A DNA stretch of 64,000 nt from an uncultured Nitrospiraceae bacterium. Lineage in GTDB: Bacteria; Nitrospirota; Thermodesulfovibrionia; Thermodesulfovibrionales; Dissulfurispiraceae. The notes under the pieces are model-generated. The model had not been told where the DNA came from. It searched no databases and worked only from the letters and a program-made list of their open reading frames with translations. The stretch covers positions 864,001 through 928,000 of the forward strand of contig CAVSHF010000003.1 in the NCBI GenBank assembly GCA_963727805.1, given 5' to 3'. Shown here one piece after another: positions 13,681-26,009 of the stretch. How positions within the stretch are numbered: position 1 is the stretch's first letter; each line of letters begins with the position of its first letter. The translations under genes were made by a program, and so were the position numbers.

Positions 13681-13968
13681 ATGCAAGAAAGAGATAAAAT
13701 GGGAATGTACAGATTGGCGAACAAGGTTCGTAATGAATTGCGCGAAGCTGCCGAACATGGCGATGTTGCCCTATTCCGTGAACTGCGGTTCAGTGCTAGC
13801 GTGTGTGTCCACCGCTTCCCGAAAATCTCGACTCGTATGCAAACTAAATGGTCGGAGCTAATCACCAGTGGTGTGCATTACTTGGTAGAACGCCTCCCTT
13901 CAGCGAGTCAGATCAAGGCGTGTCAGAAGGAGACAATAGACGATTCGTCAATGATAGTTTTTTGGTAA
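13681..13968 (+). CDS. Hypothetical protein
   Basis: 95-aa ORF directly after the ATPase; no recognised motif. Confidence 0.3.
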   Translation: MQERDKMGMYRLANKVRNELREAAEHGDVALFRELRFSASVCVHRFPKISTRMQTKWSELITSGVHYLVERLPSASQIKACQKETIDDSSMIVFW

Positions 13969-14013
13969 TCACCAAATTCCTGGCATGGGTAAAAGCACAT
14001 GACTTTCAGTCAA

Positions 14014-15210
14014 CTATACAGCAGCCACCTCCTTTTTAAACGGCATTCTGTGTGTAAGCATAGAGAAGATAACCCTGATCAGCTTGTGAGTGGTTGCCAT
14101 TAATGCCTTCATCTTAGGCAATCCTTCAGCGACTCTTCTAAGGTAATATTCTCTGAATATATTGTCAGATCTTATTGCACAGAGTGTAATAAGATGGCTG
14201 ATGCGCCTCATATGACGATTCCCTCGTTTTGATATTTTGCTTGGCCCCACATGCTTCCCTGACTGATGAGTCGATGGATCGATCCCCATGTAAGCTATCA
14301 AACTCTTATATGATTTGAAGTTGGACAGCTCTCCCATCTCCGCCAGAAAGCTGCATCCAAGAATGTTTTTCACCCCATCGAGACTCTTCATTATCTCAAG
14401 CTCTTCGATCCGTGTTGCCTGACAAGCCTCTACCAATGCCTCGGTAATCTTCTCACACTGCTCCTGAAGATACAGGATCGTAGTTGCCTTCTCAGAGACA
14501 ATAAGCTCTTTCGCTTTACCAGCTGAGCCCACCGAGCGCTTTGCAGCAGCAATAAGATCGTCGGCGCTAATCTGGACTCTCTTGTGCTTCTCCCCAGGAC
14601 AGAGAAGAGCTTTGTCGATATCTTTTCTCTTGGCCTGCCGAATTAATCTGGCTGAAGGATACTGCCTAATAAAGTTCAGCATCGTATCAGTGTAAATATT
14701 CTTGCGGAGTGTCTCAAACTCGGGGAAAGTGCTCTGCAGCAGCCGTTTGAGGTCATTCTTAAGTGATGCGATCATCCATGACTGAGACTCTCGTTCCCTG
14801 GCCAGATCCCTCAGATCCTGTGCATCTTGGGTTGACGTCACCACGCAAAGCTTCTTCTCATTGTTCAGAAGAAACTGAGCTATGGTCATCGCATCCTTCT
14901 TATCTGTCTTGGTCTTTCTCAATGACCCCTGAACAAATTTGGATATCAGAAGTGGATTTACAACCACACAACGAAGTCCCTCCGCACATAGGAAGGAAAA
15001 GAGATTGATATGATAACAGCCGGTGGATTCCATCGCAACAGCAATATCATCCAGGTTCACACCGCATCCCTTAATCGCAGTCCGAAGCTCTGCAAACCCT
15101 GCTGAGTCCATTGAGAACCCTAAGTAAAAAAGCTTCTTCTCGTCACTACCGATGCCTTGGGCAGTCGAGTGCTCTTTTGACACATCGATGCCAACGAATG
15201 CTTTGCTCAT
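14014..15210 (-). CDS. IS110-family transposase (DEDD RuvC-like recombinase)
   Basis: VGIDVSK, MESTG, KTDKKDA, GIDPSTHQSG, ISKRGN motifs. Confidence 0.95.
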   Translation of the reverse strand: MSKAFVGIDVSKEHSTAQGIGSDEKKLFYLGFSMDSAGFAELRTAIKGCGVNLDDIAVAMESTGCYHINLFSFLCAEGLRCVVVNPLLISKFVQGSLRKTKTDKKDAMTIAQFLLNNEKKLCVVTSTQDAQDLRDLARERESQSWMIASLKNDLKRLLQSTFPEFETLRKNIYTDTMLNFIRQYPSARLIRQAKRKDIDKALLCPGEKHKRVQISADDLIAAAKRSVGSAGKAKELIVSEKATTILYLQEQCEKITEALVEACQATRIEELEIMKSLDGVKNILGCSFLAEMGELSNFKSYKSLIAYMGIDPSTHQSGKHVGPSKISKRGNRHMRRISHLITLCAIRSDNIFREYYLRRVAEGLPKMKALMATTHKLIRVIFSMLTHRMPFKKEVAAV

Positions 15211-15219
15211 TTTCAAGCA

Positions 15220-15405
15220 CCTCCCGCATAGGATCTTAGGCAGGAATGCCTCCCAACCATATCTCCATCTTTACAAGAGCTCGTAGCCCTATCAACTTAT
15301 CATGGCTTTGGGAGGCAGGGGACTGACTGAAAAAAGGATTCAATGACCCTGTAGCAAACCACGTCCTCCTGCCTCTTTATGAACAGTTAATAACCGTCCA
15401 TACTA
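15220..15405 (-). ncRNA. Putative IS110 bridge RNA
   Basis: Stems GAGGCAGG/CCTGCCTC and GCCTCCCAA/TTGGGAGGC enclose two large loops with internal hairpins; loops carry segments matching target and donor flanks; ends approximate. Confidence 0.65.
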
Positions 15406-15771
15406 TCGTTATACCATATTTGATGTGTAGGAGTAGTTACCACCTGACAGCAGATTCTCTCAGAAGTAATCGCGATACCCCGACGCGGTGATGAAGCTTT
15501 GTTTTTACCGGTAATCATCGAGGGGCTATACTCTTATCCGCTATGCAGTCATACCGCAGTCATTTTAGCCAAAAGTATGAGTTCCTCCCTCAATATAATT
15601 ATCATAATCGGACCTCTACCACAACGTGGATTATCTTGATAGACTTATACCAGGCGCCTTGGGAGGGGAGGACAGCTGCGATAGTCCTGTACACGTCTGA
15701 TATTTGCGATTGCACACAATTTGAATTGTTACAAAACAAATTACAAATAAACGAGAAGAGGTATAAACATT

Positions 15772-22430: not shown

Positions 22431-22551
22431 CGTACTCTGCATGCAATTGCCTTATTCTGAAATTGGGGATAAATCGGTGCAACCTCAATTGCGCATCGAT
22501 GCTAATTTCTGCGTGTCAAAAGGATTCATTCATTGAAGCGGCTATCCGAGG

Positions 22552-23189
22552 GTCGAGTAGGCCGGTGGAATCGCACCACCAGCCCCTCACAGATTCCGTA
22601 CGTGAACCTCTCGATTCATACGGCTCGTGTCAATCATCAAGTTGAGTCTTTGCAGTCTCAACCATACACATTGAGCGATAGTTCCTCCTGGTCACCCAGT
22701 TGACTGGTACTCTTTGTGGATTGACCCATCCCCTTCCCTCCACGGCTTATTATCACCGCTTCATCGGTACTATTGGACGGTCCGACCCCTTCACCTGCAT
22801 CGATACTTTCCCCCTTCGTTTGCACTTATAGGGTTTTCTCTTAGCATCAGATGAAGAGTTCCCGCGTTCCACACAGGAGCCTAGATCAGCTTCATGCCGC
22901 CTCTATGCCGGACGCCGTTCAGGCAGTAAACAGGTATCTCCTGAACTAATCCTGATGCAAAGTAAGAACATCAGTTTTGACGTCGTCCTTTTCCTTTCGA
23001 CACCTCATCAGCGGTTCGCTTACGCTCATCTCTCTGATCCATCCCTGACACGATCTAGTCGTGCCTTTTCCTTTAACGCTCACCACCGGAGCCTTTCGAC
23101 TACAGCAGCTTAAGGTGGGTTGAAGCCTGCTCCTGCAAGCCGGCTTCGAGGGGCCAACCCTCATCTTCCTGTGCAGCCTCGTGGCGCAC
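22552..23189 (-). ncRNA. ORF-less group II intron (638 nt)
   Basis: 5' GTGCG at 23189; domain V GAGCCGTATGAATCGAGAGGTTCACGTACGGAATC; domain VI with bulged A, ending CTCGAC; EBS1 TTACTTTG complementary to the 5' exon CAAAGTAA. Confidence 0.9.
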
Positions 23190-23524
23190 TTACTTTGGGC
23201 AATCACCAAATTTCTAGTACTGGCAATATCGATGGTTCTCAATAGAACCAGGTCAGCTGTCTGGATATGGTTGCCGTGCTGATTTCGACATGAACCCCAC
23301 AGACTGAATATTTGCCTTAGGGCAAAGGTTAGAAACGGTAGGACTAAACCGCTGCGCGGTGGATTCGATTAGCAAGGGCCTATCAGTAGTAGTACCATCT
23401 TTTTCGAATAGCCACTTTTGCCTGATCACATTTCTTTGTTGAACCATCGAAGTCTTTTTACAATCTCTCTTTGCTGTGCTGCCGGCATGAGCTGGCAGAA
23501 AACAGTTTCAAAGGAGATTGTATT

Positions 23525-24370
23525 ATGAGCGCGTTGAAAGAACGGTTGCTGCAGGATCTTCAGTTGAAGGGCATTACGCTTGGTGTCCAAAGGAAATATC
23601 TCCGGGAAGTCGGTAACCTTGAGAATTATTTCGGCAAGTCTCCTGAAGAACTGAGTACAGAGGAAGTGAAGCAGTATCTGGTTCATCTTATGGAAGAAAG
23701 GGGTTTAACGAGGGGGACATACAGAACCTATGTGGCCGGGATCAAGTTCCTTTATAATACGACCCTGAATCGTGCGGATGTAGTCAATAATATTCAATAT
23801 CCGAAAGCCCAGAAGAAGCTGCCTCTCGTTTTGGATTTGTCCGAAGTCCAGGCGATTTTCTCAGTCACTGAAAACATCAAGCACAAGGCGCTTCTGATGA
23901 TCACCTATTCTGCCGGGTTGAGAATAAGTGAAGCTGCGCGACTGAAGGTGACAGATATCGACAGCAAGAGTATGCTGGTTTATGTCCGTCTTGGAAAAGG
24001 GGCAAAGGACCGTTACTCCATCTTATCGCAGACTGCCCTTGAGTGCTTAAGACAGTATTGGAGGGAATATCGCCCGGAGGAGTGGTTATTTGAAGGCGAG
24101 AAGGACAACACCCATATCACTATAAGCTCCATCTACCAGATATTCCAAAAATCCAAGAAACGCGCCGGCATCGCAAAGAATGCTTGCGTGCATACTCTGA
24201 GGCATAGTTTTGCGACACACCTTATCGAGGCGGGGACTAGTCTTCATCATGTCCAACTGCTTCTTGGGCACAGGTCACCGACGACCACGACCGTTTATCT
24301 TCATGTCAGCAAGATGAATCTGGCAAAAGTTGTCAGTCCGCTGGACATAGCAACTAAAAAATATCTGTAG
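23525..24370 (+). CDS. Tyrosine recombinase/integrase (N-terminal SAM-like, integron-integrase/Xer-like)
   Basis: GLRISE, GKGAKDR, HTLRHSFATH, LLGH, TTTVY catalytic motifs; AAGGAG RBS. Confidence 0.93.
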   Translation: MSALKERLLQDLQLKGITLGVQRKYLREVGNLENYFGKSPEELSTEEVKQYLVHLMEERGLTRGTYRTYVAGIKFLYNTTLNRADVVNNIQYPKAQKKLPLVLDLSEVQAIFSVTENIKHKALLMITYSAGLRISEAARLKVTDIDSKSMLVYVRLGKGAKDRYSILSQTALECLRQYWREYRPEEWLFEGEKDNTHITISSIYQIFQKSKKRAGIAKNACVHTLRHSFATHLIEAGTSLHHVQLLLGHRSPTTTTVYLHVSKMNLAKVVSPLDIATKKYL

Positions 24371-24391
24371 CACTCTGAGCCGTAAATCCAG

Positions 24392-25588
24392 ATGCGCCAG
24401 TCTCGTGGTGTGGAGGTGGCGGATATCTTACGCCGCTACGGCTCCGATTATCGGCAGTCTCATTCCTTGCCTCTTCGTCATCTGCGGGCCATGCACGCCG
24501 TGGAGATATGCAGGACGGCAGCACTCGGAGGCCATAGGGACAAGTGCGAGGATTGCGGCCACGTCGAGATATCCTACAACTCCTGCCGGAACAGGCACTG
24601 TCCCAAATGCCAGACCCTGAAAAAAGAACAGTGGATTGAGGCCAGACAACAGGACCTTTTGCCCATCCAGTACTTCCATGTAGTTTTCACTATCCCGTCG
24701 GAACTCAATCCGGTTGTCATAATGAATCAGAAGGTCATGTATGATCTGCTGTTCCGTTGTGTCTCCGAAACTCTCACCGAACTCTCAAATGACCAGAAGC
24801 ATCTCGGTGCCCGCATCGGCTTCATCAGCATCCTTCATACCTGGGGGCAGAATCTGATGGACCATCCCCATATCCACTGTGTCGTCACCGGAGGCGGCCT
24901 GTCTTGCGACGGAGACAGTTGGGTATCCTGCCGCAAAGGCTTCTTCATTCCGGTCAGGGTAATGTCGGCGTTGTTCCGGGGAAAGTTCCTCGATCATCTG
25001 AAAAGGATCTTTGAAGCGGGTGATCTTATCTTTCCCGGAGGAATAAGTCATCTCGGCGATTCCCATACCTTCGAGATGCTCAGAAGAAAGCTTTATCACA
25101 AGAAGTGGGTTGTCTACTGCAAACCGCCCTTCGACGGAGTTGGCGGCGTCCTGCAATATCTCGGCCGATATACGCACAGGATCGCCATCAGCAACAATCG
25201 TATAATCGAGGCCGAAAACGGCAAGGTCTCGTTCAAATGGCGTGATTACGCAGATGACGATAAGCACAAGGTGATGACTCTGCAGGCCGATGAGTTCATC
25301 AGAAGATTCCTTCTGCATGTACTGCCGAATCGATACGTTCGGATAAGGCACTTCGGCCTGCTGGCAAACAGGAAACGTAGAGATAACATTGCTGCATGCC
25401 GCGAGCTTCTTGACAGTCACAACACCGTAATGAAAGAGCAGGACAAGCCTGAGACCTGGCAGGAACAGCTGCTAAGGATCTGCGGCATTGACGTCACCAC
25501 CTGCCCCGTTTGCAAAAAAGGCAAGATGCGCCGAATTGAGATTCTGCCTCCCCGCCGCTGCAACGATCCTCCGGAGCAATGCCGATGA
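24392..25588 (+). CDS. IS91-family Y2 rolling-circle transposase
   Basis: Zn finger CEDC...SCRNRHCPKC, HUH motif HPHIH, YLGRY, RIRHFGLL. Confidence 0.93.
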   Translation: MRQSRGVEVADILRRYGSDYRQSHSLPLRHLRAMHAVEICRTAALGGHRDKCEDCGHVEISYNSCRNRHCPKCQTLKKEQWIEARQQDLLPIQYFHVVFTIPSELNPVVIMNQKVMYDLLFRCVSETLTELSNDQKHLGARIGFISILHTWGQNLMDHPHIHCVVTGGGLSCDGDSWVSCRKGFFIPVRVMSALFRGKFLDHLKRIFEAGDLIFPGGISHLGDSHTFEMLRRKLYHKKWVVYCKPPFDGVGGVLQYLGRYTHRIAISNNRIIEAENGKVSFKWRDYADDDKHKVMTLQADEFIRRFLLHVLPNRYVRIRHFGLLANRKRRDNIAACRELLDSHNTVMKEQDKPETWQEQLLRICGIDVTTCPVCKKGKMRRIEILPPRRCNDPPEQCR

Positions 25589-26009
25589 AAACCGTGGTCG
25601 TTTCAAAAATCGCCTCAATATCGCCCCGCGAAAAAAACATCTCTTTTCGCAACACGGTCTTGTTGTCCGAAAACGCCACTTTCGGCCCTTGCACATCATC
25701 GCAAAGGTCAAACAGGGGCATTAAAGACGCTGCCTATCAGCCTTGTTCAGCAAGACTTGCTCCTATATATCCTAAAAGATGCCACTGCCGATAGTATAAG
25801 GAAGGATAATCTTCGATTGAATTGACATATCCGCACAGCGGCTTAGTCCTTCACACGTCAATCCGCAACTTCGCAGCGGATTGACGCTTATTCGTAACTG
25901 TTACTGTGGCAAAATGTCTGCAGTGCGAAGTAGTCGGTGAACTTGAGATCAGAGAGGTCGTATTTTCTGGGGCATAATGTCATCGATATGTTAAATCATC
26001 CCGTCTGGC

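Follow-up and report, generated by a model that had tools for sequence, protein, structure and literature searches.

The system closest to the locus studied here is IS621. As far as its published accounts are available (PMC11208160, PMC11208158, PMC13626964; PDB 8wt6), they describe a recombinase with DEDD residues and a serine, a left-end RNA with a 5' hairpin and two loops, a CT core, 7-nt left guides, a discontinuous right donor guide, handshake bases, a junction promoter and insertion in a host repeat, all of which recur in our element, the junction promoter as a prediction. The same accounts state that the two loops in the IS621 complex come from different RNA molecules (PMC11208158), that insertion screens favoured perfect matches (PMC11208160) and that handshake pairing governs the bias towards insertion (PMC13626964). 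Natural redirection of guides has been reported across orthologues (PMC11208160) and for ISEc11/ISXne4, a pair 72% identical in which the guide changes with the target, and attC-targeting ISKpn4/ISPst6 use the recombination site of another system as a safe harbour; in the accessible text these are IS1111-type elements with a downstream RNA, unlike the element described here (PMC11187229). Insertions of ISPpu10 are reported to be confined to a repeated intergenic sequence beyond what its guide predicts, the extra determinant being a stem-loop in identical copies (10.64898/2026.03.19.712850). Published models of excision differ, some proposing cut-out and others copy-out (10.1101/2025.10.25.684509; 10.64898/2026.08.31.748434, as far as these texts are available).

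In this study we describe an IS110 element in a 64,000-nucleotide stretch (the window) of an uncultured Nitrospiraceae genome, together with its copies elsewhere in that genome. Our main reading, to which we give a probability of roughly 0.88, is that they form a functional family of IS110-group bridge recombinases specialised on a degenerate dispersed repeat, with five target-loop versions tuned to the sub-types of that repeat. Its basis in the sequence consists of intact catalytic residues and ends, a conserved two-loop RNA, covariation of guides and flanks, one common donor and the same insertion position in 8/8 copies.

The element and its ends

The element, its gene and its ends comprise the following features:
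14008..15433, minus strand: IS110 element including both CT cores, 1422 bp between the cores
14014..15210, minus strand: open reading frame of a 398-aa DEDD recombinase (ATG at 15210, stop codon at 14016-14014), from profile matches and residue alignment
14008..14009, minus strand: right core CT, the same in all copies
14010..14016, minus strand: left donor TAGTTGA, which overlaps the stop codon and supplies the -35 box; identical in 8/8 copies
15408..15416, minus strand: extended -10 box TGgTATAAC, which in the circle would lie 18 bp behind TTGACT of the right end
15425..15431, minus strand: right donor CCTACAC, the start of the left end; CCTACAC in 6/8 and CCTACGC in 2/8 copies, CCTA in 12/15 relatives
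15432..15433, minus strand: left core CT in the corrected register, from empty paralogues and relatives
15434..15440, minus strand: left target GTAACTA, host repeat DNA; empty paralogues read TAACTA-CT-GAAAG, for example at G000:C5:10151 (G000 being the element's own genome)

The 398-aa frame scores above the cut-offs of PF01548, PF02371 and NF033542, and D9, E61, D103, D106 and S317 align with the catalytic residues D11, E60, D102, D105 and S241 of IS621. The protein combines a DEDD RuvC domain with a Transposase_20 domain that carries the catalytic serine, the criterion for the IS110 family, and the first-pass annotation was right to call the recombinase intact. It is distantly related to IS621 (PDB 8wt6, E=4e-13; 398 vs 326 aa) and to ISCro4 (E=5e-12), and the best of 1720 matches in a comparison with plasmids was about 32% identical. 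We found 69 related loci, the closest of which (45-91% identity) are Nitrospirota and Thermodesulfobacteriota records, pointing to a probable Nitrospirota host. The own genome holds 8 full-length copies, 88-99.9% identical, with the 398-aa frame open in every one. They fall into five lineages, separated by dN/dS values of 0.11-0.22 and dS values of 0.16-0.47, and share one donor while carrying five versions of the target loop. Identity between copies is mosaic, indicating that tracts have been exchanged between lineages. An Rfam search of the window returned no family over the element; it gave 2 group II intron hits in another part of the window. By comparison with IS621 we regard the element as an intact, ordinary but very readable IS110-group bridge recombinase, which would form a circle, express its RNA and be active as IS621 is.

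Three further observations concern the family. A truncated and frameshifted copy in another genome (G003, L072:1500-2150) is fused to an inverted second left end with a different left flank. A second element of the IS110 family (375 aa), which carries inverted repeats close to its ends, likewise adjoins the repeat (G000:C5:50551-52145 and C5:121907-123476). One IS110 copy sits in a repeat at G000:C3:2245850-2245945, about 17 bp behind a tRNA-like gene with the anticodon CAT, as judged by eye; a position behind a tRNA gene is a typical attachment place of islands.

The non-coding left end extends 221 bp upstream of the gene, the right end consists only of the 7-bp donor arm that overlaps the stop codon, and no subterminal inverted repeats were seen by eye. 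Both ends are shared by 8/8 copies. The right end reads TAGTTGA-CT in all of them, so the right boundary TAGTTGA-CT-GAAAG proposed earlier, with its core at 14009-14008, is borne out. The left start, CTACTCCTAC in all eight, is compatible with two core registers. The first-pass annotation had placed the left core at 15430-15429, with CTACTC as part of the target and relaxed recognition on the left. CTACTC does precede that CT in all 8 copies, and one genomic site fits. However, the empty-site pattern in that register occurs 1 time in the genome and the exact empty target it implies, CTACTC[CT]GAAAG, 0 times, whereas the corrected degenerate pattern occurs 32 times against 8.5 expected from composition, and the empty paralogues lack the extra 4 bases. 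The 10-mer CTACTGAAAG by itself is not enriched in the genome (11 vs 8), and it is the longer pattern, together with the aligned empty sites, that carries the argument. Among relatives the three bases before the CT (CTA, CAC, TTC, ATC, TTT) vary together with the left guide, and CCTAC behind it hardly varies. The left guides match in the corrected register, the other would leave a promoter spacer of 14-15 bp, and GGAG of the donor guide pairs with CTCC just as GAAG pairs with CTTC in the related locus L003. We therefore reject the earlier left boundary, which the sequence itself already refutes, and give the reading built on it next to no credence; the core lies at 15433-15432 (GTAACTA-CT-CCTACAC), the boundary having been 4 bases off.

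In the corrected register the target of the window copy is GTAACTA[CT]GAAAG. CT stands at both ends in 8/8 copies and once in the empty paralogues, which marks it as a short core with no other target duplication. The predicted circle junction becomes TAGTTGA-CT-CCTACAC with an 18-bp spacer, in place of TAGTTGA[CT]ACACATC with 15 bp. The idea of a promoter assembled at the junction agrees with the sequence even though its spacer length was wrong: reconstructed junctions have a -35/-10 spacer of 17-18 bp in 23/23 elements with a readable left end (16-19 bp being accepted by the script). In the linear element no sigma-70 promoter match was found at the position of the extended -10 box. Contigs of two DNA runs depart from the window sequence at 14006-14008 and at 15436, which agrees with both registers. 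No circle junction appeared in 4 of 24 public runs, where contigs alone were searched; contigs drop rare forms, and absence is not implied.

The bridge RNA and its guides

The RNA predicted in the left end has these parts:
15378..15402, minus strand: 5' stem-loop of the predicted bridge RNA, from the minimum free energy (MFE) fold; absent in several relatives
15314..15373, minus strand: target-binding loop (stem, left guide, inner hairpin, right guide, handshake bases), from fold and alignment
15351..15358, minus strand: left target guide TTTGCTAC, which covaries with left flanks
15327..15333, minus strand: right target guide TTTTCAG, which covaries with right flanks
15325..15326, minus strand: target-loop handshake bases UC, which can pair with donor positions 7-6 (A, G), by analogy with the IS621 structure as far as described in PMC11208158
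15247..15317, minus strand: donor-binding loop, from fold and alignment
15291..15298, minus strand: left donor guide AAGTTGAT, read in all 8 copies
15263..15275, minus strand: discontinuous right donor guide, with GGAG (15266-15263) opposite CTCC, TGTA (15275-15272) opposite TACA and 5 bases looped out

The claim of a bridge RNA in the left non-coding end, with bipartite guides for target and donor, holds up in both its fold and its covariation. The MFE fold of 15211-15405 (z = -2.8) contains a 5' hairpin and two stem-loops with inner hairpins. In 21 sequences its helices are 99% paired, and 2-3 pairs are changed on both sides. The covariation score was reached by 0/500 shuffles and slid controls drop to 34-63% paired, with kinship inflating this signal. 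Two folds account for the sequences equally well, one like that of IS621 and one multibranched and closed by a 3' TCCTGCC, and covariation does not separate them. This second TCCTGCC, at 15239-15245 on the minus strand, follows the donor loop, lies near the ribosome-binding site and is kept in 21/21 sequences. The alternative helix, which can fold both loops into one multibranch structure, sets the element apart from IS621 and might act as a switch. Contigs of the RNA runs span the whole element and reveal neither the ends nor the strand of a transcript.

The earlier reading of the loops was largely accurate. TTTCAG in loop 1, as part of TTTTCAG, complements CTGAAA, and AGTTGA in loop 2 matches the left donor. 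TGTA indeed lies 3' of the inner hairpin and pairs with TACA, but it forms the distal, discontinuous part of the right donor guide, the core-proximal part being GGAG. Four relatives with the donor TAGATGA carry the guide AGGATGAT, and in L003 the right donor guide GAAG goes with CTTC. Between left donors and left donor guides of relatives there are 64/84 matches (P=0.002), a signal that stems from a single clade of 4 members. The right target guide is 7 nt long and the donor guide loops out 5 bases, compared with 2 in IS621 according to its available description, and both features differ from that element.

Covariation of guides and flanks was measured on the 8 own copies and 17 relatives (L003-L019 except L015, plus L073; L020-L069, mostly below 40% identity, were left out), with a junction readable on the left in 15 relatives and on the right in 12. 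The own copies match their flanks at 41/56 left positions (permutation mean 34.8, P=0.011) and 34/40 right positions (mean 25.5, P=0.002), above permutation on both sides. Relatives match at 76/105 positions on the left (n=15) and 45/60 on the right (n=12), P<1e-4 each. With one copy per lineage (5 copies, 8 combinations) P is 0.017 each, left and right. These P values overstate the case because copies and relatives are kin. As judged from sequence, the eight copies carry five guide versions, each of which fits the version of the repeat in which the copy sits.

Position by position, the left guide matches in 4, 14, 15, 17, 22, 22 and 23 of 23 elements, which leaves position 1 unmatched in 19/23 and positions 5-7 matched in 22, 22 and 23. 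The window copy matches its left target at 4/7 positions (5/8 over 8 positions) plus one G-T wobble, and its right target at 4/5 plus a wobble. The copies have 0-3 mismatches to their own guides over 11 positions, and the window copy has 3, which counts against our main reading given the preference for perfect matches in the IS621 screens. That its left guide fits the site poorly, as was claimed, follows largely from the wrong register, and the relaxed left specificity deduced from this is mostly an artefact because the left core was misplaced. What remains of it is that the window copy has more left mismatches than most elements. The guide of a sister copy, G000:C3:802531, fits the left target of the window copy at 6/7 positions. 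In 14/15 relatives the donor-loop handshake base pairs with target position 7. This lineage has A at position 7 in both target and donor, and its donor-loop handshake pairs with neither, so the insertion bias that handshake pairing governs should be weaker here (1 to 2 pairs, compared with 1 to 3 in IS621). The missing donor-loop handshake and a target that is not a palindrome are further differences from IS621.

The target repeat

The element lies in a dispersed repeat of about 60 bp, of which the window holds these copies:
13948..14007, minus strand: right target GAAAG and the rest of a G-type repeat copy; the reconstructed empty site has E = 3e-9 and a distal-only score of 25.7, occupied sites having been left out of training
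about 23180-23250, minus strand: further repeat copy, from the genome-wide repeat search

The repeat reads roughly NNNCTA-CT-KAWARTC, followed by 31 variable bases and then by GWTTWC-N5-GWAATC (T type) or the related G type. Iterated profiles found 140 sites at E<0.05 in the genome, 77 of type G and 63 of type T, and the reversed genome gave none. By a crude ORF mask 124/140 are intergenic, and the sites cluster in accessory regions rich in mobile elements. Of neighbouring repeats within 5 kb, 67/85 share their orientation, and pairs recur at about 92-94 bp (T to G) and about 80 bp (G to T) in the own genome and in relatives. All eight IS110 copies are inserted at the same position and in the same orientation within it. 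Profile searches found the repeat in 11/80 relatives: in 5/7 genomes of the genus, with up to at least 41 hits among the matches listed, and in 6/73 genomes outside it, 5 of these with one weak hit. A strict pattern had 0 occurrences in 150 genomes that belong to the order but not to the genus, and proved too strict.

The repeat shows no sign of folding: over 56 sites the mean z is -0.08 on one strand and +0.05 on the other, with z<-2 at 5 and 2 sites. Its sites resemble integron attC arrays in being intergenic, often in one orientation, with single genes between some of them, and in being visited by IS110/IS1111 elements, group II introns and IS91-type elements. They differ from attC in their lack of a hairpin, their two alternating sub-types and a modest bias of gene orientation. 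The consensus of integron attC sites is RYYYAAC/GTTRRRY; it was not found in the repeat, and no protein in the genome exceeded the TIGR02249 cut-off for integron integrases. We thus rejected attC, and also a REP element, which would be a short GC-rich palindrome. No published description of such a repeat was found in the literature searched, and it is apparently undescribed.

At least two other kinds of mobile element in the window use the repeat, and a further recombinase is flanked by it:
about 23340-25900 of the window, plus strand: 2.56-kb element with a tyrosine recombinase and an IS91 Y2 transposase (ORFs 23471-24370 and 24392-25588); 8 near-identical copies in the genome, one of them in the window
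22549-23199 of the window, minus strand: ORF-less group II intron, 638 nt (Rfam RF00029, RF01999); 10 near-identical full copies
G000:C5:27489-28460 (L101:7489-8460), minus strand: Xer-like tyrosine recombinase of 324 aa with repeats facing outward on its flanks; it may be the enzyme of the repeat

The recombinase of the IS91-type element has 299 aa. Scored as repeats, 5/8 of the element's junctions reach 7.5 or more, and the element joins the repeat within about 3 bp of the IS110 core. Many of the intron's 10 full copies lie at the distal box, as seen by eye; group II reverse transcriptases are encoded elsewhere (L102:5200-6435, L107:7005-8474). The module of the 324-aa recombinase is 95% identical to one in G003. 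The array at C3:790-797 kb looks like cassettes, with single genes set between sites that point the same way, several of them starting with their own extended -10 box, and a 765-bp unit with a WG-repeat gene occurs twice at 96% identity in different contexts with a site at each end.

Targeting, guide variation and the nature of the repeat

By analogy with IS621, the element would be excised or copied out as a circle, which would join TTGACT to TATAAC and switch on bridge RNA and recombinase. The donor loop would then bind TAGTTGA[CT]CCTAC and the target loop NNNNCTA[CT]KAWAR, and a tetramer would recombine both at CT. Because the strong promoter would exist on the circle only, each copy should mostly use its own guide, hence the covariation of guides and flanks. 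Sister RNAs could also act in trans since all copies have the same donor, and this can explain partly mismatched sites such as that of the window copy; it is plausible as the two loops of the IS621 complex are reported to come from different RNAs (PMC11208158, from the part of it available).

Point changes and recombination between copies may have produced the five target-loop versions. Alternatively, the guides were not retuned in this lineage at all, and five variants with different guides arrived separately by horizontal transfer, each inserting into fitting repeats. We rate this just short of an even chance. The dS values indicate that the lineage splits are old, and a pool of variants exists in soil, peat and wetland runs, where many contigs map at 90-99% identity, including guide-region indels. 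Against it stand the mosaic tracts exchanged between lineages and the copies C3:2246164 and C5:60079, which are 99.8% identical and already differ in the right guide; moreover, separate arrival would alter where retuning happened, not that it did. It might also be that targeting goes beyond the guide, with the recombinase, about 70 residues longer than that of IS621, reading the distal boxes or being attracted by sites that the repeat's own recombinase has opened or bound. We scored these boxes with a matrix of positions 22-60 behind the core of 110 unoccupied repeats, trained on unoccupied sites only in order to avoid circularity. All 8 occupied right flanks score at least 7.5 (the threshold being the lowest of the 8, that of C3:802531, a copy missed by full-length repeat models), against 71/2901 genome positions that match any guide with at most 3 mismatches. 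Counting intergenic guide matches alone, 11-31% are repeats by the crude ORF mask, and 8/8 then has a probability of about 1e-5. Given this share, much of the enrichment could come from selection, with insertions into other intergenic DNA perhaps being purged. Among right flanks of relatives (n=16) the distal boxes reach p<=0.003 in 6 and are weak in 4, and 6 have no clear signal with either matrix. A determinant outside the guide is reported for ISPpu10 (10.64898/2026.03.19.712850, in its available text); its target is a stem-loop in identical copies, whereas the repeat here is degenerate and shows no folding, with a mean z of about 0 over 56 sites. Insertions are over-represented in the repeat relative to other sites that match a guide, which suggests a further layer of targeting or purifying selection, or both, and a second cue in the strict sense is an idea that we hold tentatively, at distinctly less than even odds.

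As for the repeat itself, it looks like a recombination site for gene modules. It could serve a gene-module system of this Nitrospirota genus that is not an integron and has not been described. The site would be double-stranded, with boxes paired at a distance of 5 bp and two alternating sub-types, and its enzyme would be an IntI-related tyrosine recombinase or the 324-aa one (IS91-associated recombinases have been grouped with IntI in the accessible part of 10.1101/542381); the IS110 family would parasitise this site, diversifying its guides to track the site's drift and finding it by a second, guide-independent cue. Taken as a whole this is rather unlikely. A simple cassette model is weakened by the modest bias of gene orientation (62/93 on the distal side, with opposite trends of T and G on the core side), by the lack of modules bounded by sites at both ends and common to the own genome and 20 stretches of relatives (0/79 alignments), and by the lack of a clean association between the repeat and either candidate recombinase: G004 contains 22 repeats but, at the thresholds applied, neither of the two proteins, in a genome of about 250 contigs. 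Much less probable still is that the repeats are products of IS110 itself, either scars or half-match expansions, and not an independent system. Module boundaries do lie no more than about 3 bp from the IS110 core, the parts available of 10.64898/2026.08.31.748434 and 10.64898/2026.08.14.744561 report half-match recombination and local expansion, and a few repeats have CCTA right after the core, like the footprint of a left end (G000:C3:777113 and C3:2255805 on the minus strand, C3:60595 on the plus strand), possibly as scars of imprecise excision. The conserved boxes 40-55 bp from the core, with their fixed spacing and two sub-types, are nevertheless unlike the element's ends and unreadable by the guide, and about 140 diverged repeats stand against 8 elements.

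In conclusion, the mechanism of such elements is known, and what our analysis adds is a family with five guides in one genome, a further difference from IS621, together with an apparently undescribed target repeat. Guides change here between copies 88-99.8% identical within one genome, whereas the redirected pair ISEc11/ISXne4 is far more diverged, and a word search of the open-access literature found no paper on guide diversification within a genome. With one scaffold and one donor for five target loops, and with 8 sites occupied and about 100 empty ones that match to graded degrees, the family amounts to a natural experiment. Mismatch tolerance, use of bridge RNAs in cis or in trans and guide-independent specificity, which govern off-target insertion in bridge editing, become directly testable. 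The element leads, moreover, to a family of repeats that three or more kinds of mobile element use and that may be the site of an undescribed gene-shuffling system.
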